Below are positions 3,768-43,802 of a stretch of DNA of 64,000 nucleotides, piece after piece. Made by a program: the position numbers and the translations under genes. Position 1 is the stretch's first letter; each line of letters starts with the position of its first letter. The notes below the pieces were generated by a model, which saw only the letters and a program-made list of their open reading frames with translations, was not told the DNA's origin and ran no database searches. The stretch is from assembly GCA_947631765.1 (NCBI GenBank), contig CANRMP010000001.1, forward strand, positions 139,587 through 203,586, read 5' to 3'. Origin of the DNA: an uncultured Clostridia bacterium. GTDB taxonomy: Bacteria; Bacillota; Clostridia; Oscillospirales; CAG-272.

Positions 3768-4316
3768 TTATTTATATTTGTTGCCCGTCTTCTCGTGCCA
3801 AAGCCTGCAAAGCTCCCCTTGGTCGGGGTGTTTTTTCCAGTACGGGCGCATAAAATACTTTTCGATTCTTCGCTTGAATTTAAAAAAACTGCCTGTGCGG
3901 TCCTTTATGGGCGGCACGTTTACCGAGAGAATACCGAGAGACGCCGCCGCCATGGAATCGGTCAGTATCTGATCGCCAAGCATTGCCGCCTGACTTTTTT
4001 TGATCCCGTTTTCCTTAAGCAGACGAAGAGGCGCACAGGGAAGCGGCTTTTTGGCCTTTGCTATATAAGGGTAGCCAAGCTCTCTGTTAAAAGCCTCCAC
4101 CCGCTCCGGGCAGTTGTTTGAGACAAAGGCAAAGCCTATACCGCTTTTTTTCATGTTCTCAAACCACTCCATAAGTTCTTTCGGAGGCGTGATATCGTCG
4201 TATGTAACAAGAGTGTTGTCTATATCGCACAATACAAAGCTCACGCCGTGTTTGATAAAGAAATTCGGCGTTATGTCGTATATACTTGAAAAAAGATAGT
4301 CAGGGGTTCCGAACAT
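3768..4316 (-). CDS. YqeG-family HAD-IIIA phosphatase
   Basis: 182 aa. HAD motif I (LCDIDNTLV), VSNN, and motif III (MLGDQILTD). Size and layout are typical of YqeG. Confidence 0.85.
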   Translation of the reverse strand: MFGTPDYLFSSIYDITPNFFIKHGVSFVLCDIDNTLVTYDDITPPKELMEWFENMKKSGIGFAFVSNNCPERVEAFNRELGYPYIAKAKKPLPCAPLRLLKENGIKKSQAAMLGDQILTDSMAAASLGILSVNVPPIKDRTGSFFKFKRRIEKYFMRPYWKKHPDQGELCRLWHEKTGNKYK

Positions 4317-8391: not shown

Positions 8392-8444
8392 AAAAAATAC
8401 GGGCGCGCCGCGTGAAAGACAAAAAGAAAGGAACAGTCATAAAA

Positions 8445-9440
8445 ATGATAATAAAACTGAAAAGCGCTCCGACAATTACGACCTCTTCCTGTGTCGGAGG
8501 GAAAGAAGAGCGGCGGGGACCGCTCGGCGACAAGCTGGATTTTTACGACGAGTCCGACAAATTCGACTGCGACACATGGGAAAAATCCGAAAGCGAGATG
8601 CAAAGAAGAGCGTTTAATCACCTTCTTTCTAAAAGAAAATTGCAAATATCGGACATAGACGTGCTTATTGCGGGAGATTTAATCAATCAGTGCACCTCGT
8701 CAAGCTATGGGCTTTTAAGCTTTGACATTCCGTATATCGGAATATTCGGGGCGTGCTCCACCGCGGCGCTCGGTCTGGGGCTTTGCGGTATACTCTGCGA
8801 CGGGGGATATACAAAAAACGCGGCGATAGTCACAAGCTCGCATTTTTGCTCCGCAGAGAGGCAGTTCCGTTTCCCGCTTGAATACGGCTCTCAGCGCCCG
8901 CCCACAGCCCAGCATACCGCCACCGCCGCAGGCGCCTTTCTTATCGAAAAAGAGGGAAAAGGGGCGCATATTGACGAGGTGATGTTTGGAATAACGGTTG
9001 ACGCGGGAATTTCAGACGCCAATAATATGGGAGCGGCAATGGCTCCCGCGGCTGTGGATACGCTTTTAAAATATTTCAGAGAGAGCGGCACGGGACTCGA
9101 GGACTATGACCTAATTGTAACCGGCGATCTCGGATACGAGGGACACAGAATTGTTACCGAAATGATGCATACTTTAGGCTACGATATGAGCGGCGTTTAC
9201 AACGACTGCGGGCTTATGCTGTACGACAGGCAAAAGCAGGATATGCACGCGGGAGCCTCGGGATGCGGATGCAGTGCATTTGCAATGGCGGCGTCTGTTC
9301 TTCCGGATATAGTTTCGGGAAAGTACAAAAACGTACTTTTTTTGGGAAGCGGAGCGCTGCTGAGTCAGGCGAGCGTGCTTCAGGGAGAAAATATTCCCGG
9401 AGTTGTGCATCTTGTAAAGCTTTCTCACAGGGAGGGATGA
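8445..9440 (+). CDS. spoVAD: Stage V sporulation protein AD (thiolase-like fold)
   Basis: An ATG at 8445 (MIIKLKSAPTITTS) with AAAGGAA upstream fits the SpoVAD N-terminus better than the GTG at 8412. Thiolase-like GACSTAA. Its position between spoVAC and spoVAE is as expected. Confidence 0.85.
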   Translation: MIIKLKSAPTITTSSCVGGKEERRGPLGDKLDFYDESDKFDCDTWEKSESEMQRRAFNHLLSKRKLQISDIDVLIAGDLINQCTSSSYGLLSFDIPYIGIFGACSTAALGLGLCGILCDGGYTKNAAIVTSSHFCSAERQFRFPLEYGSQRPPTAQHTATAAGAFLIEKEGKGAHIDEVMFGITVDAGISDANNMGAAMAPAAVDTLLKYFRESGTGLEDYDLIVTGDLGYEGHRIVTEMMHTLGYDMSGVYNDCGLMLYDRQKQDMHAGASGCGCSAFAMAASVLPDIVSGKYKNVLFLGSGALLSQASVLQGENIPGVVHLVKLSHREG

Positions 9441-9808
9441 TAATGGGAATTTTTCTTGATTACGTTTATGCGTTCGCGGTGGGCGGAGCCTTTTGCGTTG
9501 TCGCCCAGATATTGATTGATAAAACAAAGCTCACTCCGGCAAGAATCCTTGTCGCCTTTGTTGTGTCGGGAGTTGTGCTCGGAGGAATGGGAATTTACAA
9601 ATATATAGCCGACTTTGCGGGCGCCGGAGCGAGCGTTCCTCTTACCGGATTCGGATACGCACTTTCCGAAGGGGTAAAAAAAGCCATAGATGAAAAGGGA
9701 GCTATAGGTATATTAACCGGCGGACTTTCCGCCACCGCCGCGGGGATTGCTACGTCAATGGTTTTGGCGCTTCTTACGGCGCTTATCTTTAAGAGCAAAA
9801 ATAAATAA
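9437..9808 (+). CDS. spoVAE: Stage V sporulation protein AE (SpoVAEB type)
   Basis: ATGA overlap with the spoVAD stop. Sequence FAVGGAFCVVAQILIDKTKLTPARILV...FAGAGASVPLTGFG matches the SpoVAEB pattern. The track ORF starting at 9263 is an upstream over-extension. Confidence 0.85.
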   Translation: MIMGIFLDYVYAFAVGGAFCVVAQILIDKTKLTPARILVAFVVSGVVLGGMGIYKYIADFAGAGASVPLTGFGYALSEGVKKAIDEKGAIGILTGGLSATAAGIATSMVLALLTALIFKSKNK

Positions 9809-22783: not shown

Positions 22784-25700
22784 TTATTGGCGCTTGATTT
22801 CGCTGATATCTATGGTGTGAAGGCTGTTGTCAAAATAGAATTCGCCCTCATACGGCATTTTGTCAAGGCAGGTAAGATTTTTATCTGACAGCGAAGCCGA
22901 AATAATGAATTTTGATGCTCCCTTTGTATAGCTCATTTTAAACGCGGGAAAAGCTGCGCACAATTTAGGTCGGATTGTGAAGCGGTCGCCGCAGTCCTTA
23001 AGCCCTATGACAAAGTTAAGATACAGCATATAAAATATTCCGAGAAACGAAGGGTCGCTTTCCGCATAGGAAGGGCATAGCAAGACCAGCTTTGAAACAG
23101 CCTTGTTAAAGCTTCCCTCAAAGATGAGGCGGCATATTTCAAGCATCGGGTCGTTTGATGATAAAAAGGACTCTCTATCGATACTCGGGATATCAAGTCG
23201 CTCGTTCATTTGTCGGCATACCGGCTCGTACATCTTGCAGACAAGATATTTGATAAGTCTTGATATATCCGAATCATTGCCGTAATTTTCAATTGCCCTT
23301 ATTCCGTGCATGTAGACGCTTTCTTTTATCGTGCCGTCAAAATAGGGTATTTTTTCTTTGAGAAATTCGACATCTCCGCTTGTCCTGAAATACTCGGCTA
23401 TTGCGGCGGAAAGGATAATGCCGTCACTGCCGCTCTTTTCAAAAGAGGCGGCGTATTCGATAATTGTTTCTTTGAAGAGCTCGGGGTTTGTGACCGAGAG
23501 AACCGGAAAGCCGTATATGCGCTTGTCAACTTCCTCGCAAAGACCCGAGAAAAATTCGGGTATTCTGTGGCAAACCAAGTGGTCACATTCTTTTAAAGGG
23601 CTGTATATTATAATGCTCGGTCGGTCTGCCACAGGTCCCTCACAGCCGGAAGGGCAGGAGTATTTTTCGTTTGCCGCGTAGAATATCCGAGGCGACTTGT
23701 CATACAGCCCTACAATAATAATTTGCTTGTCTGCGCCCTTACAGGGCTTTGAGACAAATAAGGTGTGCTCTGAGTAAAATCCGCGCCATACCGAGCGATA
23801 AAGCAGGGAGCCTTGCTCTTGTATGCATTTGCAAAGTCTCGGGTCGGACTCCATAGAAAAGGGAATAAGGTCAAGCGCGGCTTCAACCCTCTCGCCGCAC
23901 ACCCTTATTACGAGTACTTGAAGCTCATCGTCAATAAAAATCTCGCACCTTATATCGCACCCCTCAATTTGCCCCACAAAGCTTACAAGATTGTCGCTTT
24001 TTTCTATTGTGTGGCAGGAGGCTAAAAGGTCGTACTTGTTGCCCTTGACAAGCACGCACAGCCGCATAAAGCATGTCAGCGGGTGTGAGTTTTGATAAAG
24101 GGCGATAAGGCGGCTGCTTGAAAGCTTAATTTGCATTTTGCGCCCGAGGCAAAAGTCAATTTCGCACGGCAATAATTCTCTGTAAAAGACCGCCTTTGAG
24201 CTTGTCAAACAGCCGTATGCGGTTTTGTGGGAAGAGGGCAAAGCGTTGCGGGAGGGAGGCGCACACCTAACTACAAGAGTCGGCTCTATCTCTCTTATTT
24301 GATTTAAAACGCTGCGAAAATAACACTCGGGGGAGAGAAAATCCTTGTCGCTGATAAACATTGCCGAAAACGCTTCAAGGGCGCTTGTACTTTGCTCGTC
24401 GTAATCTAAAATAAGGTCGTTTGGCAAAAGCATGGGGCGCACTTTTTCTTTTGTCTCCTCATTTTTGCAAATGACAAAAAGCTTTAGGTGAATTCCCGTC
24501 AAAGACAGTTCATTTACCGCACGGGAAAGGGAAGAAACAAGGGTAATATTGCGTAAATCAGAAGGACACAGGGCGCATACATAGCTAAAGGCGGCGCAGT
24601 CGAATTTTTGGAGCTCCATAGGGCTTACGTCGGGAAGGTCTCTGACCGCTCCCGCCTTAAAGAGAAGAGCGGCAAGCAGTGCTTCCTTTTCCATTACCCG
24701 CCGATAGGTTTTATTATAAGCTTTGCAGCTTTGGAACCGAGAGAGCGCCTCTTTTTCGTTTTCGGCAACGCCGACATAAAACGAGCATCTGAAAATTCCG
24801 TCGGGACATTCCTCAAATACACCGATTTTATAATTATCTCCTTCTTTAGATACGGCGGCGCTGTTAAAGGAGGTGAAAATTACGGTTTTATCGGGAGTTT
24901 GCAAAATAAAGCGGTCATCTTTTATTTTTATATCCTCCTTTGAGCAAAATTCAAGGCAGGCGTTTATTCTGCAAAACGCACCTTTGACGGTAAGAGATAT
25001 TTCGCAAAAGGGCGGCCCCTTCGGCTTTATTATTTTGGCGCTTGATACAATATCACTATGATTTGAAAGGTATTCCGTACATTCGTCGCTGTAGTAAAAC
25101 TCCCCTTCAAAGGCGGCAAAATGCGCCCTTTCGGTGGAAAAGGTCAGCTTTACCGAATTTGCGGTATCTTTCATGTCATATTCTTTAAAGCAGTTTGCTG
25201 TCAGCTCTTTACCCTCTGAAAGAAACATGAGATGACCGCATGAGGAGGCAAAAAAAGAGAGCGATTTATCTCCCGTGGCACAAAGGCTCGGGACAGCGTA
25301 TTTGAGCTTTTTGTCGTCTTTCGGCTTGTCGGTTTTCATAATAAGCTCGGATACCTTGAATTTCGCAAATGACCTTACGCCCTCGGCGCGAAGAAGGTAA
25401 AGATACGGGTTTGCATATTTGCTCCGGCAAAATCTCCTGACAAACACATTGTCGCATGAGTAGTTTGCCGTGGCGACCACCGACATACAAAGGTGTAAGA
25501 GATTGTAGCACCGCACCACGGTTTTCTCGGCGCAGGTGAAATCCACAGCCTCATAAAAGCCGTATTTTCCGAGTGCTTTTTCCTTTCTGAAGTTAAAAAG
25601 AAGAGCCATTGAGGATATTTTAAAGTGCGTCAGGAAAAGAAATGCGGCGTACGGGGAGTATATCTCTTTGCCGATAACTCCCGCATAAGAGAGCTTTTCA

Positions 25701-28351
25701 ATTCCGTTTTCAGAAAAAATATAGTTCATGTTGTTGTCAAGTCTTCCGGTGTGGCAGGAGGTGACTCCCCACAGCCCTCTTTTTGAATAGGCGATATTTT
25801 TTCTGAATACCTTGCTTACAGTGCGCGAAAACAACGTGTCGGGGAAAAGAGGCAAAAACAGGAAGGGGAGCATATAGCTCATGGCGCTTCCGGTTTCGGA
25901 CAGGATTTTAAGCGTCGGGTCAATTTGCAAAAAGTCTTTCTTTTTTGCCGCCGAGGCGAAAAAAGCGGCGGGAAGAGTAGAAATACTCGTCATTTGACCC
26001 CTGTCGCAAGCTCTTGTAATATCAAAGCCTTCAATAAGCCTTTCGCACCTTGCAATTAATATGTCGTCCTCGGGCAATACCTCCCTAAGCCCTTCGTAAA
26101 GGCATATAAGGCAGGTTAAAAGATTCCCGTTTTCTTCGGCAAGAATTGCTTTTGCCCCCGTGGGCGAAAGGGCTTTGACAAAATAGCGGTCATAATACAG
26201 ACCGTAAGAGGTCGGGAGGCGCTCAATAAAAGAAAGCGTATCGGCGATTATCGGATAGCAGGCGGCAACCCGCTCTTTTCCGAGGTCGCAAAACGCCAAA
26301 AGCGAGGTGAGATACAGTCCAAGCTCAGTAGGAGTTATTTCTCTTTCTGTCTCTTTTAAGGGCAAGGCTACGAGTGCGCCATTGCCCACAATGAAATCAT
26401 GCGCGCCGTTTATATGTTTTTCAAGCAGTTTTTGGGGAGTCGGCTTATTTTGTCTTTTGTACATTCCGCCAAGATACAGCACAAAAAGAGGAGCTATAAG
26501 CCAAGTAAGCGCTATATACGGCAAAATATTAAGTCCTAAAAAGACAATACCGCATCCGAGCGCCGACAGCGTGAAAGCGAAAAAATGCTTTGCGCTGTCT
26601 TTTTCCTGCTTTTTCTCGCTTTTTTTCAAAACAATTGCCCCGAAGGCGCAAAACAGACTTTCAAAAAATAAAAAGGGAATAAGAGACACTGCACAGAACG
26701 CCGCAATAATAAAGTCGCATGCAAATGCCAAGCCTTTGCGATTTTCACCCTTTGCAAAGGCAAAACAGATATCTTTTATTATGCCGAAATACGGGATAAA
26801 GCAGAGCAAAAGGGCAAGAAGGTGACACAGGGCAAAAAGATTTAATGCATTTGAAAAAATCAGCAAAAGAAACGCCATTATAGGCGAAAGAGCCGAAAGT
26901 GCCTCGCAAAGCCTTGCCTGTATCAAGCCTTTTTCGCAATTAATAGAGAACTGGGGAAACGAAGGAATACTTTTTCCAAGGTCAAGGGAGGAGGCTTTAA
27001 CGTATGCCTGCGCATGCTCTGTGTACCCGTAGTTCAGCCGCTCTTCTATTTCATCCTCGGGCATTGAGCGCTTGATAAGCAGTGCAAAGGCGATATTGTC
27101 GAAAATGACCGGCGACGATTGTGAATGGCTTTCGTGAAGCGAAATGCGCGAAAATGGCGAGTGCTTTTGCGGAATATAAGCCTTGACTTTTCCGAAAATC
27201 ATTCCCCTTCCGCCGCAAAGCCGGTCTTTTTCAATAATCGGGCGGTTTTGCTTGTGGCTCATTGCCTTAATAAGAGCTTTTATGCATCCCGCGGACGGCT
27301 CACATTCATAGGGAAGAAACAGGGTGTAGGCTGTCACTCCTGTCGCACCTGCGCCTAAAAGGCTGTCAAAAGAGGAGTCGGCGCTTACTATGTCCTGCAT
27401 GTGCGAATAAATGTCACGCGCACAGCAAAAGCGCTTTTTCTCGGGTATATACTGCCTTTTAGGCAGGTAAAAACAAAATCTGTCCCCGTATTTTTTAACA
27501 AGCCTTTCATGCTCGTGCTCAAGCCTTGTAATAATGGCAGAGTCGTCGGGACCTGTAAGACTGCGGCTGTCAGGCAATGTGAGTATTGCCCCATATACAA
27601 GGCTTTTGTCGTCATTTTGAGCTATAAGGCGTTCAAAATAGCGGTAGATTTTGTCGACCCTTGAGCTTTCAATTAATGTTACAACAAGGGTTTTCGGCAG
27701 GTCCTCTATATTTGAGCAGGGGACAAAGCTTCTGCCGTACACTTTCTCAAAGACTCCGGATATAATTGCAAGAACAGGTAAAAAAGAAACCGCGACCGCC
27801 AAAGGAGACCCCAATAAAAGCCCAATCAGCGCACAAATAAAAAGCGCGCTTATCGGAAATACTTTTCGCCTTTTTTTAGAGGTCAGCCCGCAATCGTCTT
27901 TGAGCGAAAAAAGCGCGGCGCCGTCTGTGGCGCTTATCTTGTGAAATGCACAATAGCGCATAACCTTGCGCCTGATTTCGCTTCTTGTTTCGGGAGCTGA
28001 CGTGCGGTATACACTGTTATTTTCAAGTATGCCGCATACCCTTGACAGCAAAGAATAAAGCTCTTCATAGTCGTAGTCAAGGTACAAATTAATGACGTCT
28101 CGTACCTGTTTTGTGCAGACAAGACCGCCTTTTATCGCCCTTTTATATATTTTTTCGACAAACTCGCGCGTTTTGAATATTCCCGCCTCGTCGGTGATAT
28201 TTTCCTTTGCCAAGAGCTTTGCAAGTTCCCGAGGCTCTAAGGTATAATTATTTTCCAAAAGCAGTTTTTCAATTGTTTTGTAATACCTGCCGCGTTTCTC
28301 TCCGGAAAAAAACATAAAAATGTTTCTCCTTTCAGCTTTTGGGGAGAACAC
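22784..28351 (-). CDS. Giant (1855 aa) polytopic membrane protein with a cyclic beta-1,2-glucan synthase-like layout (GT84-like domain and glucan-processing domains)
   Basis: Layout is 2 TM, then a cytoplasmic GT-like block (LVVTLIESSRVD...YGAILTLPDS), then 4-6 TM, then about 1200 soluble residues. The soluble part contains GLWGVTSCH and YGFYEAVDFT, which resemble the GxWGISES and YGFYEAxDYT strings of NdvB/Cgs proteins. This assignment is from memory of motifs only. The start could be 28351 or 28315. Confidence 0.55.
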   Translation of the reverse strand: MFSPKAERRNIFMFFSGEKRGRYYKTIEKLLLENNYTLEPRELAKLLAKENITDEAGIFKTREFVEKIYKRAIKGGLVCTKQVRDVINLYLDYDYEELYSLLSRVCGILENNSVYRTSAPETRSEIRRKVMRYCAFHKISATDGAALFSLKDDCGLTSKKRRKVFPISALFICALIGLLLGSPLAVAVSFLPVLAIISGVFEKVYGRSFVPCSNIEDLPKTLVVTLIESSRVDKIYRYFERLIAQNDDKSLVYGAILTLPDSRSLTGPDDSAIITRLEHEHERLVKKYGDRFCFYLPKRQYIPEKKRFCCARDIYSHMQDIVSADSSFDSLLGAGATGVTAYTLFLPYECEPSAGCIKALIKAMSHKQNRPIIEKDRLCGGRGMIFGKVKAYIPQKHSPFSRISLHESHSQSSPVIFDNIAFALLIKRSMPEDEIEERLNYGYTEHAQAYVKASSLDLGKSIPSFPQFSINCEKGLIQARLCEALSALSPIMAFLLLIFSNALNLFALCHLLALLLCFIPYFGIIKDICFAFAKGENRKGLAFACDFIIAAFCAVSLIPFLFFESLFCAFGAIVLKKSEKKQEKDSAKHFFAFTLSALGCGIVFLGLNILPYIALTWLIAPLFVLYLGGMYKRQNKPTPQKLLEKHINGAHDFIVGNGALVALPLKETEREITPTELGLYLTSLLAFCDLGKERVAACYPIIADTLSFIERLPTSYGLYYDRYFVKALSPTGAKAILAEENGNLLTCLICLYEGLREVLPEDDILIARCERLIEGFDITRACDRGQMTSISTLPAAFFASAAKKKDFLQIDPTLKILSETGSAMSYMLPFLFLPLFPDTLFSRTVSKVFRKNIAYSKRGLWGVTSCHTGRLDNNMNYIFSENGIEKLSYAGVIGKEIYSPYAAFLFLTHFKISSMALLFNFRKEKALGKYGFYEAVDFTCAEKTVVRCYNLLHLCMSVVATANYSCDNVFVRRFCRSKYANPYLYLLRAEGVRSFAKFKVSELIMKTDKPKDDKKLKYAVPSLCATGDKSLSFFASSCGHLMFLSEGKELTANCFKEYDMKDTANSVKLTFSTERAHFAAFEGEFYYSDECTEYLSNHSDIVSSAKIIKPKGPPFCEISLTVKGAFCRINACLEFCSKEDIKIKDDRFILQTPDKTVIFTSFNSAAVSKEGDNYKIGVFEECPDGIFRCSFYVGVAENEKEALSRFQSCKAYNKTYRRVMEKEALLAALLFKAGAVRDLPDVSPMELQKFDCAAFSYVCALCPSDLRNITLVSSLSRAVNELSLTGIHLKLFVICKNEETKEKVRPMLLPNDLILDYDEQSTSALEAFSAMFISDKDFLSPECYFRSVLNQIREIEPTLVVRCAPPSRNALPSSHKTAYGCLTSSKAVFYRELLPCEIDFCLGRKMQIKLSSSRLIALYQNSHPLTCFMRLCVLVKGNKYDLLASCHTIEKSDNLVSFVGQIEGCDIRCEIFIDDELQVLVIRVCGERVEAALDLIPFSMESDPRLCKCIQEQGSLLYRSVWRGFYSEHTLFVSKPCKGADKQIIIVGLYDKSPRIFYAANEKYSCPSGCEGPVADRPSIIIYSPLKECDHLVCHRIPEFFSGLCEEVDKRIYGFPVLSVTNPELFKETIIEYAASFEKSGSDGIILSAAIAEYFRTSGDVEFLKEKIPYFDGTIKESVYMHGIRAIENYGNDSDISRLIKYLVCKMYEPVCRQMNERLDIPSIDRESFLSSNDPMLEICRLIFEGSFNKAVSKLVLLCPSYAESDPSFLGIFYMLYLNFVIGLKDCGDRFTIRPKLCAAFPAFKMSYTKGASKFIISASLSDKNLTCLDKMPYEGEFYFDNSLHTIDISEIKRQ

Positions 28352-35991: not shown

Positions 35992-36005
35992 AAGACGACA
36001 TATGG

Positions 36006-36055
36006 AGCGTTTATCCCGAGGAAAAATCCAAGGGATGAACGCTTTTTCGTTTTCT
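36006..36055 (+). terminator. Terminator after hydF
   Basis: Stem AGCGTTTATCCC ... GGGATGAACGCT, followed by TTTTTCGTTTTC. Confidence 0.65.
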
Positions 36056-36208
36056 TTGCGCCTTTGCGGCAAAAGCGCACAAAATATTCGGCGCTCTCAA
36101 AGGAGGCGCCGCAAGAGCGCCGAGAAAGGAAAGATTTGAAGCCTTTTCGGAGGCAAAAAAGAAAAATTAAAAAGCCGAAATATTTTTTTGCCAAAAGGTT
36201 TGCAATAT

Positions 36209-36237
36209 TTGCGGGAATATGTTATAATAACTGTGCT
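36209..36237 (+). promoter_or_regulatory. Candidate sigma-A promoter of the LRR lipoprotein gene
   Basis: TTGCAA (36209-14), a 17-nt spacer, then TATAAT (36232-37) with a TG at -15/-14. Confidence 0.6.
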
Positions 36238-36336
36238 AAAATAAAAACGGTCAAAATGACCAAAAAGGAGAGAAAAATGAAAAAAATTATCTCAATCATT
36301 CTGACCCTTACCACCGCGGCGGTGTTCGCGTCGTGC

Positions 36337-36345
36337 GGGGGGGGG
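36337..36345 (+). repeat. Homopolymeric G9 tract at the signal-peptide/mature-protein junction
   Basis: Counted directly: tgc GGGGGGGGG taa. It lies immediately after the lipobox Cys codon. Confidence 0.95.
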
Positions 36346-36529
36346 TAATACCGGAAATACCTCTGACCTGTCAGGCGTAACGGGGACGACTGCTCCGACA
36401 GTAACGACAGATCCCACTCAATCACAAGAGCCGATTCCCGACAGCCAAGGCTTGCTGTACGAGTTGAACGAAGCAGGCGATGCGTACACGGTTGTCGGAA
36501 TTGCGGAATCCGCAAATTCCGATATTGAA

Positions 36530-38030
36530 ATTCCGGCAACGCACGAGGGACTGCCGGTGACGGCAATTGGTAAAGATGCCTTCAATGGTTACCTCTTCCA
36601 TAAATATATTGAAATCATTACAATTCCTGCCAGCGTGACATTGATTGGTGAGCGTGCCTTTGCTTATTGCGCAAGGCTTACAAGTATTACTGTTGATAAA
36701 GGAAATCCCGTATATCACAGTTCCGGGAACTGTTTAATTGAAACAGAAGGAAAAGTGCTTATCGCCGGATGCAAAACCAGTGAAATTCCGAGTGACGGTA
36801 GTGTGACGACAATCGGAGAGGAGGCCTTTGAGGGTTGCGCAAGTTTGACAAGTATCACGATTCCTGACAGCGTGACGGAGATTGGCATGCAAGCCTTCTC
36901 AAACTGCATCGGTCTTGCGAGTATTACCATACCGGGCAGTGTGAAGACAATCGGCGAATCTGCCTTTGAAGGTTGCACAGGTTTGACAAGTATCACGGTT
37001 GCCGAAGGAAATCCCGTATATCACAGTGCGGGTAACTGCCTTATTGAAACAGAAGCAAAAGTCCTGATTTTGGGTTGCAAAACCAGTGAGATCCCAAGTG
37101 ACGGAAGTGTGACGAAAATTGGCGATGCTGCTTTTGGTAGATGTGAAGGTTTGACAAACATCACAATTCCGGATGGAGTGATGGTAATTGGAGAAGCTGC
37201 CTTTTGGAGTTGCTCAGGTCTCACAAGTATTACGATACCGGATGGCGTAACGACCATTGGCGACGGAGCCTTTGAATACTGCGAAGGGCTGACAAGCATC
37301 ACGATACCGGACAGCGTTACGACAATCGGCGACTCCGTATTCAGCAACTGCACAGGTCTTACAAGCATAACTATACCTGATGGCGTAACGACAATCGGCG
37401 GCGGCACCTTTGCAGCGTGCACAGGTCTTACAAGCATTACAATTCCTGATAGCATTACAAAAATTGGTGGGTATGCCTTTTCTGGTTGTGAAGGTCTTAC
37501 AAGCATAACGATACCAGATGGTGTAACGATAATCGACTACTCCGCTTTCGGCCATTGCACAGGTCTTACAAGCATAACTATACCTGATGGCGTTACGACA
37601 ATCGGCGACTCCGTATTCAGCAACTGCACAGGTCTTACAAGCATAACGATACCAGACAGTGTAACTGCAATCGGTGACTTCGCCTTTTGGTATTCTGGTC
37701 TTACAAGTATAACAATTCCGAACAGCGTAACTGCAATCGGCGACTCCGCCTTTGAAAGTTGCACGGGTCTTACGAGCATAACGATACCGGACAGCGTTAT
37801 AGAGATTGGCCACTCGGCTTTTTATGGTTGCTTTGGTCTTGTGAGTGTTACCATACCGGGTAGCGTGGCAACAATCGGTGATCGTGCCTTTAGTGGTTGC
37901 ACAGGGCTTACAAGCATCATCATCTCGGATGGCGTGACGGAGATTGGCATGCAAGCCTTCTCAAACTGCATCGGTCTTGCGAGTATTACCATACCGGGCA
38001 GTGTGAAGACAATCGGCGAGGATCCCTTTT
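36530..38030 (+). repeat. In-frame 69-bp-periodic LRR coding repeats, including long identical direct repeats
   Basis: An 89-bp stretch gcgtgacggagattggcatgcaagcc...gaagacaatcggcga occurs at about 36869-36957 and again at 37932-38020. A further block of ~57 bp (cgttacgacaatcggcgactccgtattcagcaactgcacaggtcttacaagcataac) occurs at 37315 and 37591, an offset of 276 = 4 x 69 bp. Confidence 0.85.
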
Positions 38031-38154
38031 GGTGCTGTGGAGTACTTACCGACATTTATTATGGCGGAAACGAGACGCAATGGGCAGAAATACTGTCTGA
38101 TTATAACGACATCCCCGAAACCGCAACTATACATTACAACAGCAAATAATAATA

Positions 38155-38187
38155 AATCCCCGACTCTGGCTCCGAGTCGGGGATTTT
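38155..38187. terminator. Bidirectional terminator between the LRR gene and the Bce-type operon
   Basis: Stem ATCCCCGACTC / GAGTCGGGGAT (11 bp) with a T5 run downstream on the plus strand and a T-rich run on the minus strand. Confidence 0.8.
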
Positions 38188-38212
38188 TGGCGCCGCGTGC
38201 GCTTCTTGTCTA

Positions 38213-38386
38213 TCATTGCATTTTTTCAATAAGTCCCAAAGTAAAATCAGTGGCTGTTTTGATAAGATAAATTAAAAACAGCAAAATCGCCGCGGGAAGC
38301 GCCAAAATAATCATAAGACAAAGTCCGGTATATGACACTATTGCCGAAATAACTTTGCATATTAAGCTTTTTTCACTTTTTGCCAT
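38213..38386 (-). CDS. 57-aa hydrophobic microprotein downstream of the BceB-like permease (below the ORF-track cutoff)
   Basis: Read by hand: MAKSEKSLICKVISAIVSYTGLCLMIILALPAAILLFLIYLIKTATDFTLGLIEKMQ. It starts 15 nt after the permease stop and ends before the operon terminator. It has no convincing SD. Confidence 0.35.
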   Translation of the reverse strand: MAKSEKSLICKVISAIVSYTGLCLMIILALPAAILLFLIYLIKTATDFTLGLIEKMQ

Positions 38387-38401
38387 ATTTCAAAAAATAT
38401 A

Positions 38402-40477
38402 TTATGCGTTTTGCTCTTTCGCGTCGCTTACGATTTTGTAATAAGCGCCCGCTGTCAGCTTGTACACCGCCGCATAGAACAGTGCAAACACTATAAGGCT
38501 TATGCCGGTAGTTGCGGCAAAGAGAGTAACGCTCTCAAACCCGAAAAGCAAAAGCAGCTTGCGTATTATCGGGAAGGCGAACGCAAGATGGGACGCCGCA
38601 AGAAGGAGCGGGAGAAAAAATACCGTGAGAAGCTGTGAATTGATGCTCTTTTTTATATCCTTCTTTGTCATGCCCACCTTCTGCATAATGGAAAAGCGCG
38701 CCTCGTCCTCGTACCCTTCGGAAAGCTGTTTATAGTAGATTATAAGCACGGCGGCAAGCGTGAATACAATGCTCAGTATTATGCCGATGTAAAACAGCGT
38801 GCCGAACATGCCGTAAAAATCCTGCCTGTTTTCCTCGCGCGACGATATGGAAGAATAATACGCGCCGTAGTTTATTTCCATTTCCCCCGCGTGGGTAGAC
38901 GAAGAGTATATTTTTTCATTGATTGACCTGCAGAGCGCTATCTCCTCTTTTGCTTCAAGCGAAGTGTCAAAATCGTACATCAGACGGTATTGCAGCATAC
39001 CTTCTCCCAAAGAGTCCCTCATGTCCGCTATGCCGTAGATTGCGTACTCAAGGTCTGGGACGGCTATCACCATGCAGGGCGATATAATATAGCCCTCGCC
39101 GTGCTCGAATTTTTTTGCCTCATATTTTTTTATACGAAACGTTCTTCCGCCGTTAAAGGACAATGTGTCGCCCTCAAATTCATGCCGGTATACGCATATA
39201 ATTGCCTCGTCCTTTTCAAGAGAGATGTCCTCGCCAACGTTCGCGTTAAAATCGGAGAGCGGAACAAAAAGAAACTGAAAAACGTTTGCCATAACGTCGA
39301 CGCCGTGGGCAACAGAGCTTATCTTACTTGCATCAAGCTCGACCTTGCCGTCAATAAGCAGCCCGGAAACGGCAACCGAGCGGTAGGAGAGAATATTACT
39401 CGGCTCTGCCTCGGCGTCGGCTGTCATATTGTCTATATCGCGCTTTATCGCTTTTGAAGTTTGGTCTGAGAGCCCTTTTAAGTCGCCGAATCTGAAGGTT
39501 ATGTTAATATCGCGCGGATAACGCTGATTTACCGCGTTTTCTTCCCCGAAATACAGGCAGGCGGTTGAGGATATCATGACAAGCACCATAGTGGCAAGTA
39601 TACATATTGAAGCAAGCCCCGCGCCGTTTCGTTTCATGCGAAACGCCATAGAGGACAGGGAGACAAAGTGACTTGGCTTATAGTAATATCCCTTTTTCTT
39701 TTGCAAAAGTCTGCAAAAGAGTACAGACCCCGATATCATGAGCAGATACGTGCCGGCAATAACCATTAAAACCGCCACAAAGAACCACGCAAGCGCAGTT
39801 ATCGGGTCCTTTATCGTGACTGCGATATAGTACGCGCCGCCAAGGATAAGTGCGCCGAGTATTCCCAAAAGCCAATTCGCACGCGGCGGCTTTTCGCCGG
39901 TATTCTCACCGTGCAAAAGCTGCATTGCGCTTGCAAAGCGTACCTGACGTATCGAGTTTAAAAGCAAAAGCAGAAATATTACGCCGAATACCTCGAGCGT
40001 TCTTAAAATTGCCGGCAGTGACACCGAAAGGTCGAAGCTTACATCTTCGTTCATTATGTTGACAAATCCGAGCTCGGCAAGCTTTGAAAACGATATCCCG
40101 AGTATCAGCCCCATTGAGAGCGAGATAAGAGCTACAATAAGCGTTTCAAAGCAGAGTATGCGCGCAATGCTTCGCTTGCCCATGCCGAGTATGTTATAAA
40201 GTCCGAATTCTTTTTTGCGCCGCCGCATCAGAAAGGAATTTGTATAAAAGAGAAATATACATGCAAATACCGCGATAACCGCGCTCCCGAGCGCTAACAT
40301 ACTACGCACCGATTCCGCGCCCATCATAGAGTCGGGCACACTGCAAATGCCGATGTACATTATGATATAGAACATCATCACCATGCCCGTGCAGGTCAAA
40401 ATGTACGGAAGATACATTCTTTTGTTTTTTCGAACTCCGTCAAGGGCAAGCTTCGGATAAAACAATAACGCCTTCAT
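38402..40477 (-). CDS. BceB-type (FtsX-domain) ABC permease, 10 TM with a large extracellular domain
   Basis: 691 aa. Two FtsX-like 4-helix blocks flank an extracellular region of about 220 aa. Overlaps the ATPase gene by 4 nt. Confidence 0.85.
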   Translation of the reverse strand: MKALLFYPKLALDGVRKNKRMYLPYILTCTGMVMMFYIIMYIGICSVPDSMMGAESVRSMLALGSAVIAVFACIFLFYTNSFLMRRRKKEFGLYNILGMGKRSIARILCFETLIVALISLSMGLILGISFSKLAELGFVNIMNEDVSFDLSVSLPAILRTLEVFGVIFLLLLLNSIRQVRFASAMQLLHGENTGEKPPRANWLLGILGALILGGAYYIAVTIKDPITALAWFFVAVLMVIAGTYLLMISGSVLFCRLLQKKKGYYYKPSHFVSLSSMAFRMKRNGAGLASICILATMVLVMISSTACLYFGEENAVNQRYPRDINITFRFGDLKGLSDQTSKAIKRDIDNMTADAEAEPSNILSYRSVAVSGLLIDGKVELDASKISSVAHGVDVMANVFQFLFVPLSDFNANVGEDISLEKDEAIICVYRHEFEGDTLSFNGGRTFRIKKYEAKKFEHGEGYIISPCMVIAVPDLEYAIYGIADMRDSLGEGMLQYRLMYDFDTSLEAKEEIALCRSINEKIYSSSTHAGEMEINYGAYYSSISSREENRQDFYGMFGTLFYIGIILSIVFTLAAVLIIYYKQLSEGYEDEARFSIMQKVGMTKKDIKKSINSQLLTVFFLPLLLAASHLAFAFPIIRKLLLLFGFESVTLFAATTGISLIVFALFYAAVYKLTAGAYYKIVSDAKEQNA

Positions 40478-41238
40478 CTTGCTTCACCTCCAGATAAAAG
40501 GAGGGTCAGAGTGTCGGATATTTTCTGATAGAACTGCTCGTTTGTGTCCTCGCCTCTGTAAAGCTGGTGAAATACCTCGCCGTCCTTGATAAATAGAACG
40601 CGCCCCGCAAAGCTTGCGGCTTTTACCGAATGGGTAACCATTATGATCGTGTGACCGAGCTTATTAATGCTTGAAAAAATCCTTAAAATATCGTCTGCCG
40701 ACCTTGAATCGAGAGCGCCTGTGGGCTCGTCTGCCAAAATCAGCTTCGGGTTTGTGATTATTGCCCTTGCCACGGCGGCGCGCTGCTTCTGCCCGCCCGA
40801 GACCTCATAAGGATACTTTTTAAGAATTTCCTCTATCCCGAGCTCTTTGGCAATGGGTATCAGCGCTTTATGCATCTGGTCGTGGCTCTTACCCGCCAAA
40901 ACGAGAGGCAGATAAATGTTGTCCTCAATTGTAAAGGTGTCGAGAATATTAAATTCCTGAAAGACAAATCCGAGATTTTTGCGCCTGTATGCGGCAATCT
41001 CTGCTTCCTTTATTTCAGAGAGGTCAAAGCCGTCAAGAAGCACGCTTCCCTTTGTGGGTCTGTCAAGAGCGGCAAGAATGTTGAGAAGAGTGGTTTTTCC
41101 CGAGCCGGATTCGCCCATTATGGCGACAAATTCTCCCTTTTCAACACTGAAATTCACGTTTTTGAGCGCCTCTGTACGATTTCCTCCGAATCTTGGGACG
41201 TAGGTTTTTTTAAGTCCGGTAACTTTTAAAATAGCCAT
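40474..41238 (-). CDS. BceA-type ABC transporter ATP-binding protein
   Basis: Walker A GESGSGKTT, signature SGGQKQR, Walker B LILADEPTGALD. MacB/LolD-type subfamily. Confidence 0.92.
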   Translation of the reverse strand: MAILKVTGLKKTYVPRFGGNRTEALKNVNFSVEKGEFVAIMGESGSGKTTLLNILAALDRPTKGSVLLDGFDLSEIKEAEIAAYRRKNLGFVFQEFNILDTFTIEDNIYLPLVLAGKSHDQMHKALIPIAKELGIEEILKKYPYEVSGGQKQRAAVARAIITNPKLILADEPTGALDSRSADDILRIFSSINKLGHTIIMVTHSVKAASFAGRVLFIKDGEVFHQLYRGEDTNEQFYQKISDTLTLLLSGGEAR

Positions 41239-41329
41239 TGTAGTTTCCTCCGAAAAGTTTTCTGCTTATATTTTAGCAGAAAGGGGAAATGAGAAGCCAT
41301 AGATAAGGCTTACATTTCCCGCTTTGAAT

Positions 41330-41345
41330 CTTACACTTTTGTAAG
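41330..41345 (-). promoter_or_regulatory. Inverted repeat CTTACA-N4-TGTAAG, candidate BceR-type response-regulator box upstream of the ABC genes
   Basis: A perfect 6+6 palindrome about 92 nt upstream of the bceA-like ATG and about 60 nt upstream of an extended -10 (TGcTAAAAT, plus-strand 41269-41277). It fits the TNACA-N4-TGTAA type consensus I recall for Bce-like regulators. Confidence 0.45.
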
Positions 41346-41348
41346 AAG

Positions 41349-42338
41349 CTATTCTTTTATCTTTTTGTACTCTTCAAGACCGATATAAACCGAAGTCCCC
41401 TTTCCGAGCTTTGAGGTGACGCGTATATTTGTTCCGAGATTTTGGCATATGCGGCGACAGAGATAAAGCCCTATTCCGCTTGCCCTTTTGTCAATTCGCC
41501 CATTGTATCCGGTATATCCCTTTTCGAAAACCCGCGGGATATCCTCAGGAGCAATGCCTATTCCGGTATCCTCTATGCAAAGCTCCTTGTTTTCGGTAAA
41601 AAATATTTTAATTTTGCCCTCACGCGTGTATTTTAAAGCGTTTGAAAGCACCTGCTCAATGACAAAGGACAGCCATTTTTCGTCCGTTATTATCTCATAA
41701 TTTATTTCTTCATATTCAAGGCGAAGCTTACGGTCAATAAATTCCGAGGAAAGCTTTGCAAGCGCTTGCTTTATTACAGAGTCAAGGTCTGTGCCATTAA
41801 ACACATAGTCGCCCGAATCCGAGTCAAGCCTTAGATAGGCAAGCACCATTTCAACATACTGCTCAATGCGAAGCAGCTCAAGAAGAGCCCTTCTTGAAAG
41901 CGGAGTGTCCTCATTCTGCAGGGTCAGGCGCATTGCGGCAATCGGCGTTTTTATCTGATGCACCCACACCGTGTAGTATTCCATGGTATCCTGTATGCGC
42001 GAGGCAGTCTGCGCTTCAAGCTCGCTTATTTCGGCTTTAAGCGTCCTTATTATTTCCTGATAGTCGGCGCTCTCGATACTACGTGCGTCAGGTAGGGATG
42101 TAATCAGCGCGGCGCTCTGCTTTTTGAGTTCAAGCAGGCATTTGTGTCTCTCTTTTTGGCGTAAAAAATCCACGGCGACAAATATTATGCCGACAATCAG
42201 GCAAAGAAAGGCGGGGTAAAGCAGGGCCTTTGGCGGCAGGCGGCATAAAAGAAAGGTTATGAGAAAAAGCGCAAAGAAAACAATATACGAAGCTATAAGC
42301 GTTTTGTGAGCTTTTAAGTATGAAATAAAGAGTTTCAC
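41349..42338 (-). CDS. BceS-type intramembrane-sensing histidine kinase
   Basis: I prefer the GTG at 42338 (AAAGGAA upstream), which gives 329 aa. Two TM helices with a minimal loop, H-box VHQIKTPIAAM, and an HATPase_c domain (EDTGIGI, GIGLYL). The track ORF start at 42482 overlaps the upstream gene. Confidence 0.85.
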   Translation of the reverse strand: MKLFISYLKAHKTLIASYIVFFALFLITFLLCRLPPKALLYPAFLCLIVGIIFVAVDFLRQKERHKCLLELKKQSAALITSLPDARSIESADYQEIIRTLKAEISELEAQTASRIQDTMEYYTVWVHQIKTPIAAMRLTLQNEDTPLSRRALLELLRIEQYVEMVLAYLRLDSDSGDYVFNGTDLDSVIKQALAKLSSEFIDRKLRLEYEEINYEIITDEKWLSFVIEQVLSNALKYTREGKIKIFFTENKELCIEDTGIGIAPEDIPRVFEKGYTGYNGRIDKRASGIGLYLCRRICQNLGTNIRVTSKLGKGTSVYIGLEEYKKIKE

Positions 42339-42349
42339 GGAAATTCCTT

Positions 42350-43078
42350 TCAGCAAAAAAGATAAAAATGCCTGATAAGTGCGAAAATCAAAAGATGCGC
42401 CGGATATCCGATATAGAAGAACCACTTTGAAAAGGCGCTCTTGTTTTCTGCCCTTTTGCCGCTGTAAAAATATATAATGCAAAGTCCCGAAAGCGCCATC
42501 CCGGTTATGGTTAACAGCGCGTTTGCAATATCCAAGGTGTGCGTGCTCTCAAAGCGTGAAATAAGAAAACAGAGAAAATAAAGCGTTGTCGAGATTATAT
42601 ATGCGGCTTTTGTTCTTGCGGAGCTTTTGCCGCTCCATATAAAGAGAATTGTGAAGAACGGTGCAAACACACCCCAATCGCATAAAAGCGTGAGTGCGGC
42701 AAAAACTACGATGAGCAATATTTGAATTGCGGGACGCTTGATTTTATCTTCGGTAAGGCAGATAAGAAAACACAAAAAAAGGGTAAAAAGCATGTTGAGG
42801 TTTTTGTATCCGAGCGCCGCGTAATAGGGAACTTGAGATATTATTGCAAACAAAAGAAGCCTTGCAGCGTATTTTTTCTTTGATCTTGTGCAATTGTACC
42901 CTTCAACAAGAAAATAACACATTGTAATTGCAGTAAAGCTGCCAAGCCCCGTAAGAAATGAATAAAGCAAGCCGTTATTAAAAAGGATCCTTGCCGCATG
43001 ACTTATTACCATTGCGGCAAACGCCGCGTATTTAACAGCCTCTCTGTTAAGTTTTTTAAAAGCCATGTCACTCAACAA
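42350..43078 (-). CDS. TraX-family polytopic membrane protein (acyltransferase-like) lying between the response regulator and the kinase
   Basis: AAMVISHAARILF, CYFLVEGYNCTRSKKKYAARLLLFAIISQVPYY and the C-terminal FFYIGYPAHLLIF match the TraX pattern (MliDH..., F.l.EG..hT+....Y..RL..Fa.iS..P, fY.fYP.HL). Confidence 0.65.
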   Translation of the reverse strand: MLSDMAFKKLNREAVKYAAFAAMVISHAARILFNNGLLYSFLTGLGSFTAITMCYFLVEGYNCTRSKKKYAARLLLFAIISQVPYYAALGYKNLNMLFTLFLCFLICLTEDKIKRPAIQILLIVVFAALTLLCDWGVFAPFFTILFIWSGKSSARTKAAYIISTTLYFLCFLISRFESTHTLDIANALLTITGMALSGLCIIYFYSGKRAENKSAFSKWFFYIGYPAHLLIFALIRHFYLFC

Positions 43079-43739
43079 TATAGCCTACGCCGAATTTTGT
43101 CACTATGAAATTTTCAAGTCCCGCCGCGTCAAGCTTTTTTCTAAGCCGATTTATATTTACTGTCAAAGTGTTGTCGTCAATAAACGTCTCGGTCTTCCAC
43201 AAGCGCTCCATTAGCTTCTCGCGGCTGACAATTCTGCCCTTGTTTTCCATAAGGCAGAGCAGGATTTTGTATTCGTTTTTGGTGAGGGTTATATCTTCGT
43301 CCTTGTATCTTAGCGTTCCGTTTCCGGTGTTTAAAAACGCGCCTCTGTGCCAAAGCACCGGTACAGTGTCCGAAAAATCGTATGTTCTGCGAAGCAGCGC
43401 CTGAATTTTTGCCATAAGCACGCTTTGATCAAACGGCTTTGCAATAAAATCGTCGGCGCCCATATTCATTGCCATTATGATATTCATGTTGTCGGAGGCG
43501 GAGGAAATAAATATTATCGGTACTTTTGAGATTTTGCGCAGCTCTTGGCACCAATGGTAACCGTTGAAAAACGGCAGAGCGACGTCAAGCAGTATTATAT
43601 GGGGCTGAAACTGCGCGTATTCGGTGAGAATTTCGTGAAAGTTCACGGCAATATGCGTTTCAAGCTCCCACATGCGCGCCGCCTCTTTTACGGCGTTTGC
43701 TATTCCCATATCGTCCTCAACAATAAAGAGTCTGTACAT
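43068..43739 (-). CDS. OmpR-family response regulator (BceR-like)
   Basis: Start at MYRLFIVEDD (43739, GGAGG upstream). Receiver Asp in ILLDVALP. The C-terminal winged helix ends in GVGYIVE. Confidence 0.92.
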   Translation of the reverse strand: MYRLFIVEDDMGIANAVKEAARMWELETHIAVNFHEILTEYAQFQPHIILLDVALPFFNGYHWCQELRKISKVPIIFISSASDNMNIIMAMNMGADDFIAKPFDQSVLMAKIQALLRRTYDFSDTVPVLWHRGAFLNTGNGTLRYKDEDITLTKNEYKILLCLMENKGRIVSREKLMERLWKTETFIDDNTLTVNINRLRKKLDAAGLENFIVTKFGVGYIVE

Positions 43740-43802
43740 TAAAGCCTCCGCGTTTTTTTCCTTTTTGTCTATTCTATCACCATACTTTAAAAAAGTCAAC
43801 CG

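Follow-up and report, generated by a model that had tools for sequence, protein, structure and literature searches.

Does a run of nine guanines, located where the signal peptide of a predicted surface lipoprotein meets its mature part, mark a switch captured in its OFF position, a decaying gene, or an error in the sequence? This question is raised by a locus in the window, i.e., the whole stretch of 64 kb from an uncultured Clostridia bacterium analysed in this work, for which a preliminary description, made from the DNA letters, had proposed an ON/OFF switch driven by slipped-strand mispairing. Homopolymer contingency loci are textbook features of Gram-negative mucosal pathogens: in Campylobacter jejuni, Neisseria, Haemophilus and Helicobacter, genes for surface structures contain G/C homopolymers of 8-13 nt within their 5' coding portion, and slipped-strand mispairing at these loci leads to stochastic ON/OFF switching. 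In gut Firmicutes, most of the known phase variation involves invertible DNA segments, e.g., those of C. difficile, and in the literature on Clostridia it is described through invertible elements. Our literature searches found no report of homopolymer-driven surface-protein switching in Clostridia, consistent with the remark of the preliminary description that few such reports exist for gut Clostridia.

In this work, we examined the anatomy of the locus, the length of the tract in other assemblies of the same species, its genomic surroundings and its homologues, and weighed the proposed switch against the explanations that compete with it.

Architecture of the locus

The features of the locus are listed in Table 1. 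Every upstream element named in the preliminary description (promoter, Shine-Dalgarno sequence and ATG) was located, and the TAA stands directly after the tract, as it had reported. The complete OFF-state translation from this ATG is MKKIISIILTLTTAAVFASCGGG* (23 codons), which by inspection reads as a lipoprotein signal peptide, with MKK followed by IISIILTLTTAAV and a putative lipobox F-A-S-C, whose Cys is codon 20 (36334-36); in other alleles, the lipobox is I-A-S-C. In the assembly ERZ27249588, the gene caller gives the same short ORF with a length of 30 aa, starting at the upstream ATG (window 36256). The G9 tract is uninterrupted, occupies codons 21-23 in the 5' coding region, and exceeds the ~7 nt taken as the minimum for a homopolymer of interest in a 5' coding region or promoter.

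Table 1. Features of the LRR lipoprotein locus, with positions numbered along the window.
Feature	Position	Strand	Description
Sigma-70-like promoter, predicted	36200..36228	+	TTGCAA, 17-nt spacer, TG-extended TATAAT; 10/12 matches
Shine-Dalgarno AGGAG	36266..36270	+	6 nt 5' of the ATG; direct sequence reading
Signal-peptide ORF, OFF state	36277..36348	+	ATG at 36277-79; MKKIISIILTLTTAAVFAS-C-GGG, then TAA at 36346-48
Poly-G tract G9	36337..36345	+	GGG GGG GGG; out of frame, TAA directly 3'
Mature-protein frame	36344..38149	+	begins GGT AAT (G-NTGNTSDLSG...); stop at 38147-49
Bidirectional terminator-like hairpin	38154..38186	.	3' of the body stop

The +1 frame is free of stop codons from 36305 up to the one listed in Table 1, in agreement with the different frame of about 1.8 kb with some 20 LRRs originally described, and its body comprises 600 codons. 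The encoded mature protein consists of a Gly/Thr/Ser/Pro linker of ~35 aa, ~20 BspA-type LRRs of 23 aa each, and a C-terminal tail of ~35 aa, and at the DNA level the LRR body has a repeat period of 69 nt. The body has no in-frame start codon before 36452, where a TTG stands that lacks a convincing Shine-Dalgarno sequence, so the description of this body as having neither an ATG nor a Shine-Dalgarno sequence of its own was accurate. In-silico deletion of one G (G8) yielded the single 623-aa ORF that had been predicted, and the resulting protein matched Pfam LRR_5 (PF13306, BspA-type) over five stretches with E = 2.8e-137 and 451 bits (cutoff 27.7). The 565-aa ORF of the window had no record in the protein look-up. 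The terminator-like hairpin after the stop indicates that the LRR gene unit is monocistronic, and the gene product is predicted to be a BspA-type LRR surface protein anchored to the membrane through the lipobox Cys.

Apart from the G9 tract, no run of G or C in the 64 kb exceeds 6 nt, and GGG accounts for only 14% of the Gly codons of the window. In dinucleotide-preserving shuffles, a G/C 8-mer arose ~0.86 times per window and the observed count was reached in 24 of 100, and therefore the length of the run alone is not significant; G9 carries weight because it falls precisely where the signal peptide meets the mature protein and because it is polymorphic between samples. Furthermore, all homopolymers of 7 nt or more (A/T) or 6 nt or more (G/C) were screened for ORFs that a 1-nt indel would join, which flagged two sites, G9 and a T7 at 9337. 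The latter was rejected as a frameshift, as it is the normal spoVAD/spoVAE boundary, where spoVAD and a spoVAE/spoVAC-like gene (window 8412-9808) abut at the T7 run. Since no homopolymer-linked ORF break was found besides G9, the window bears no sign of systematic homopolymer error.

Length variants of the tract in other samples

Other assemblies of the species were found through exact-sequence look-up of the neighbouring proteins, and four more of them, independent of one another, reach the tract; all comparison contigs are metagenome assemblies with, judging by the contig names, ~4-5x coverage. The tract is G9, and the gene OFF, in both the window genome and the contig L001 (ERZ27249588). 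In L002 (ERZ27249325) it reads TGC-GC-G10, 3 nt longer than G9, and the gene is OFF in the same frame as with G9, while in L068 (ERZ27249440) it is G10, OFF in the other frame, with a 41-aa ORF called. In L070 (ERZ27060145) the tract is G8 and in frame, and the called ORF passes through it to the contig end; this only ON allele lies 33 nt from the contig end, with a support of possibly 1-2 reads. Thus, four forms (G8, G9, G10 and GC+G10) occur in five sequences whose flanks are 99.9% identical within each clade, and the length sets the reading frame: G8 gives the 623-aa fusion, G9 stops at once, and G10 stops 11 codons later. The comparison of related strains that the preliminary description had suggested as a check showed a variable length, and neither of the patterns named there as refuting the switch, i.e., a uniform G8 or a G9 fixed in all relatives, was found at the assembly level.

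The alignments place this variation against a nearly invariant background. Between the window and L001, 7964 bp were aligned with 5 mismatches and no gaps; between the window and L002, 9120 bp with 3 mismatches and 1 gap, which is the tract; and between L068 and L070, 5.7 kb with 3 mismatches and the 2-nt gap of the tract. The tract therefore changed in two of the three within-clade comparisons, versus ~4e-4 substitutions per site, roughly a thousand-fold excess over ordinary sites. It is the only small indel between contigs at least 99.9% identical (5.7-9 kb), the sole other indel in the alignments being a 10-bp deletion in traX of ERZ27249440. This deletion (CCCTTTTTTT, at ~2205 of contig L084) divides traX into ORFs of 116 aa and 122 aa, and may reflect a genuine difference between strains or an error of assembly.

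The body ORF is uninterrupted in all four OFF alleles (477-600 codons). Two types of body were distinguished: type A, with 600 aa after the tract, is present in the window, L001 and L002, and type B, with 477 aa, in L068 and L070, whose bodies differ by 1 aa in 477. The first 13 and the last ~38 residues are identical between types A and B, with the repeat blocks between them rearranged or replaced, which suggests that recombination or a cassette-like process diversifies the protein in addition to the proposed tract switch. The existence of two very different allelic bodies in the same gene makes its product a plausible object of selection by the host (IgA) or by phage. The promoter sequence (36200-36228) displays no difference between both clades of the species.

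The L002 allele has two further peculiarities. Its TGC-GC-G10 sequence (L002 3459-3480) resembles a GC duplication before the tract, or a G12 with one G-to-C change. Its signal peptide carries a Phe-to-Ile change in common with the type-B clade, yet its body is of type A, a combination that may point to intragenic recombination.

In different samples, eight low-coverage contigs (L003-L007, L079, L082 and L083) end 104-160 nt upstream of the tract, at positions equivalent to window 36177-36233, where the sequence is conserved, and L070 starts at the equivalent of 36304. Assemblies appear to be interrupted systematically near the tract, and the contig ends near it could be due to poor read-through or to heterogeneity in the assembly graph.

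Genomic context and homologues

The LRR gene is flanked by hydE/G/F on one side and on the other by a convergently oriented BceAB-like ABC transporter together with a two-component system. A sister species (GCA_947588825.1, contigs L088-L093), whose HydG is 92% identical, has only traX between hydF and the malic-enzyme gene, and is devoid of the LRR gene, a 57-aa gene, the FtsX/ABC (BceAB-like) pair, the histidine kinase and the response regulator. Accordingly, the LRR gene belongs to an accessory block of ~7 kb (window ~36000-43800). The best named HydG matches, with 88-89% identity, were Clostridia, Clostridiales and Acutalibacteraceae MAGs. The presence of spoVA genes indicates an endospore former, and together with the HydG matches it points to an uncultured spore-forming lineage of Clostridia near Acutalibacteraceae. 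Collections rarely contain this species, whose clusters have 1-9 members. Elsewhere in the window, an ORF of 1855 aa on the minus strand (22784-28351) had no NCBIfam match; its counterpart in the sister species carries the Pfam domain Glycoamylase (PF10091).

A search with the N-terminal protein sequence returned a single homologue (P0121), 53% identical over the N-terminal 120 aa, in which the reading frame is uninterrupted, with the arrangement MKKIIILILALTMAAVLAS-C-GGSGGN...LRR and the lipobox L-A-S-C. Its junction codons are TGC GGA GGG AGT GGG GGC AAT, i.e., mixed Gly codons with no pure G run. The intact junction of this homologue indicates that the fused single-ORF lipoprotein is the ancestral state and that the pure G run is lineage-specific. 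No ON-form protein with the N-terminus of the window was returned from a set of 5.8 billion proteins, a negative that is unreliable as the same search also missed the L002 and L070 products; in the full-length protein search no orthologue was visible, the results being swamped by long repetitive LRR proteins. The scan of genome contigs with signal-peptide-word patterns gave, as the only match among those listed, a small Ruminococcoides lipoprotein, which is unrelated and was discarded; the species of the window was not among the matches listed. Metagenome contigs yielded 53 distant BspA-type homologues, none from the species of the window, and a G/C run of at least 8 at the lipobox was present in none of these 53 loci.

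A G9 run was also observed in a metagenome contig of an unrelated organism (L027, Ga0114993_10001475, 3816-3824). It is intergenic, follows a terminator-like hairpin, precedes by ~130 nt an unrelated LRR_5 gene with an ordinary signal peptide, and could be a promoter-proximal poly-G tract of that different organism.

Alternative explanations for the length variation

The variation could reflect a plain pseudogene or mutational hot spot, that is, an accessory gene that is dispensable and in the course of being lost would contain a site prone to errors, and the different lengths of this site would represent neutral decay. Four of the five alleles are out of frame, the gene and the neighbouring ABC/two-component block are absent from the sister species, which makes relaxed selection possible, and the protein search described above gave no ON form; all these observations are compatible with decay. 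We nonetheless regard this explanation as unlikely, given that there is an in-frame G8 allele with nearly the same body as the G10 allele, that no OFF allele carries a second disabling mutation over 1.4-1.8 kb, and that both clades have kept the promoter, the Shine-Dalgarno sequence and the signal peptide. Moreover, the OFF alleles occupy two frames and occur in both clades, which argues for repeated recent events and not for one old lesion. If, on the other hand, the true tract were G8 everywhere and the gene intact, the odd lengths would be homopolymer miscalls of sequencing or assembly. G-tracts are a known difficulty for Illumina sequencing, as they disturb the reads, and the allele lengths reported here come from assemblies, with low coverage in the comparison contigs; the eight contigs that end upstream of the tract likewise suggest poor read-through. 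Against such an artefact, which we hold to be very unlikely, G9 was obtained independently in the window genome and in ERZ27249588, which are 5 SNPs apart in 8 kb; the 5.7-9 kb alignments contain no other difference in homopolymer length, despite common A7/T7 runs; and no other gene of the window is broken at a homopolymer.

Recoding has also to be considered, since it is well established that transcription can slip at homopolymers. The G9 allele would then be decoded in part, either through RNA-polymerase slippage on the G run or through an RF2-like +1 ribosomal frameshift at GGG-UAA, in which the G run would act as an internal Shine-Dalgarno-like stimulator, as in prfB; the tract would set a graded expression of the lipoprotein instead of turning it on and off. 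Both G9 and GC+G10 do read GGG GGG GGG TAA T with the body in the +1 frame. However, slippage is best documented for A/T runs, the Rfam scan of the window returned no element, and the combination of a conserved offset and a slippery context, as expected of a programmed frameshift or transcriptional slippage, was not found among the relatives. Because the alleles (G8, G9 and G10) occupy all three frames, with no conserved frame offset, recoding was rejected as the main explanation, and we give hardly any credence to it in either of its forms.

Discussion

Our results indicate that the locus is probably a hypermutable poly-G contingency locus, captured OFF (G9) in the window. The switch put forward in the preliminary description is supported by the G8, G9, G10 and GC+G10 alleles that distinguish the assemblies and by the intact bodies of the OFF alleles. 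According to the model that we propose, the first three Gly codons on the mature side would have been turned into an uninterrupted poly-G run, in which slipped-strand mispairing during replication would add or remove Gs. With G8 or G11, signal peptide and LRR body would form one ORF (ON), and the lipoprotein would be made, exported, lipidated and displayed. With G9, translation would halt at the TAA directly 3' of the tract, and with G10 it would halt 11 codons later; in both cases the gene would be OFF, with only a signal-peptide-sized product of 23-34 aa and a body kept silent, as it has no usable start of its own. Such changes would presumably be reversible at high frequency, and their benefit might consist in escape from host antibody or phage, or in altered adhesion.

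If this is true, a poly-G switch on a BspA-type adhesin-like lipoprotein extends the homopolymer strategy to commensal Clostridia. Such genes are split or labelled as pseudogenes by annotation pipelines, and assemblies are prone to end at them; therefore, these loci are likely under-counted in MAG catalogues. The interest of the finding lies mainly in the biology of surface variation in the gut microbiome and in MAG annotation.

The mechanism proposed here is already known from other systems; the novelty lies in the host, which belongs to spore-forming Clostridia near Acutalibacteraceae. One tract was found here in 64 kb, in contrast to the Gram-negative mucosal pathogens Campylobacter jejuni, Neisseria, Haemophilus and Helicobacter, whose genomes each contain dozens of such loci. 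The nearest systems by protein class are the internalin InlA of Listeria monocytogenes and the BspA-like proteins of Candidatus Mycoplasma girerdii. In inlA, a 5' poly(A) tract alternates between A6 and A7 with a mutation rate ~1000-fold above that of point mutations (PMC2831843), and the approximately thousand-fold excess estimated here from the comparison of assemblies is of the same order as that measured for this poly-A tract (PMC2831843). InlA and the protein of the window are both LRR surface proteins of Firmicutes with a homopolymer at the extreme 5' end of the gene; in inlA the loss of one base results in a tiny truncated peptide, and natural isolates that are otherwise identical differ solely in tract length (PMC2831843). 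Nevertheless, inlA belongs to a pathogen, its poly-A is located at codons 2-4, its LRRs are of the internalin type, its anchor is LPXTG, and its switching frequency was measured (PMC2831843).

The BspA-like surface proteins of Candidatus Mycoplasma girerdii contain simple repeats of variable length (PMC5476646). They share with the locus of the window the BspA/TpLRR-type family, a repeat-length variation seen in metagenomes, and a majority of predicted OFF forms with a minority of ON forms; they differ in having dinucleotide repeats and at least 28 paralogues, in belonging to a wall-less Mollicute, and in that their frequencies were measured at the read level (PMC5476646).

The closest analogue is found in another gut commensal, Bifidobacterium breve UCC2003, in which the pilin genes bbr_0113 and bbr_1889 are switched through replication slippage at an intragenic G-tract (PMC9187656). 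There, a poly-G tract (G10-12) parts an ORF with the secretion signal from the ORF of the surface-protein body, and the latter ORF lacks its own start; the sequence deposited in the databases is an out-of-frame form, and the tract lengths vary within the B. breve population (PMC9187656). B. breve is an actinobacterium, and its switch controls a sortase-dependent LPXTG pilin encoded by the first gene of an operon (PMC9187656); in contrast, the window presents a member of the Clostridia with a BspA-type LRR protein that is predicted to be anchored through its lipobox and monocistronically encoded, with the tract directly after the codon of the putatively lipidated Cys.
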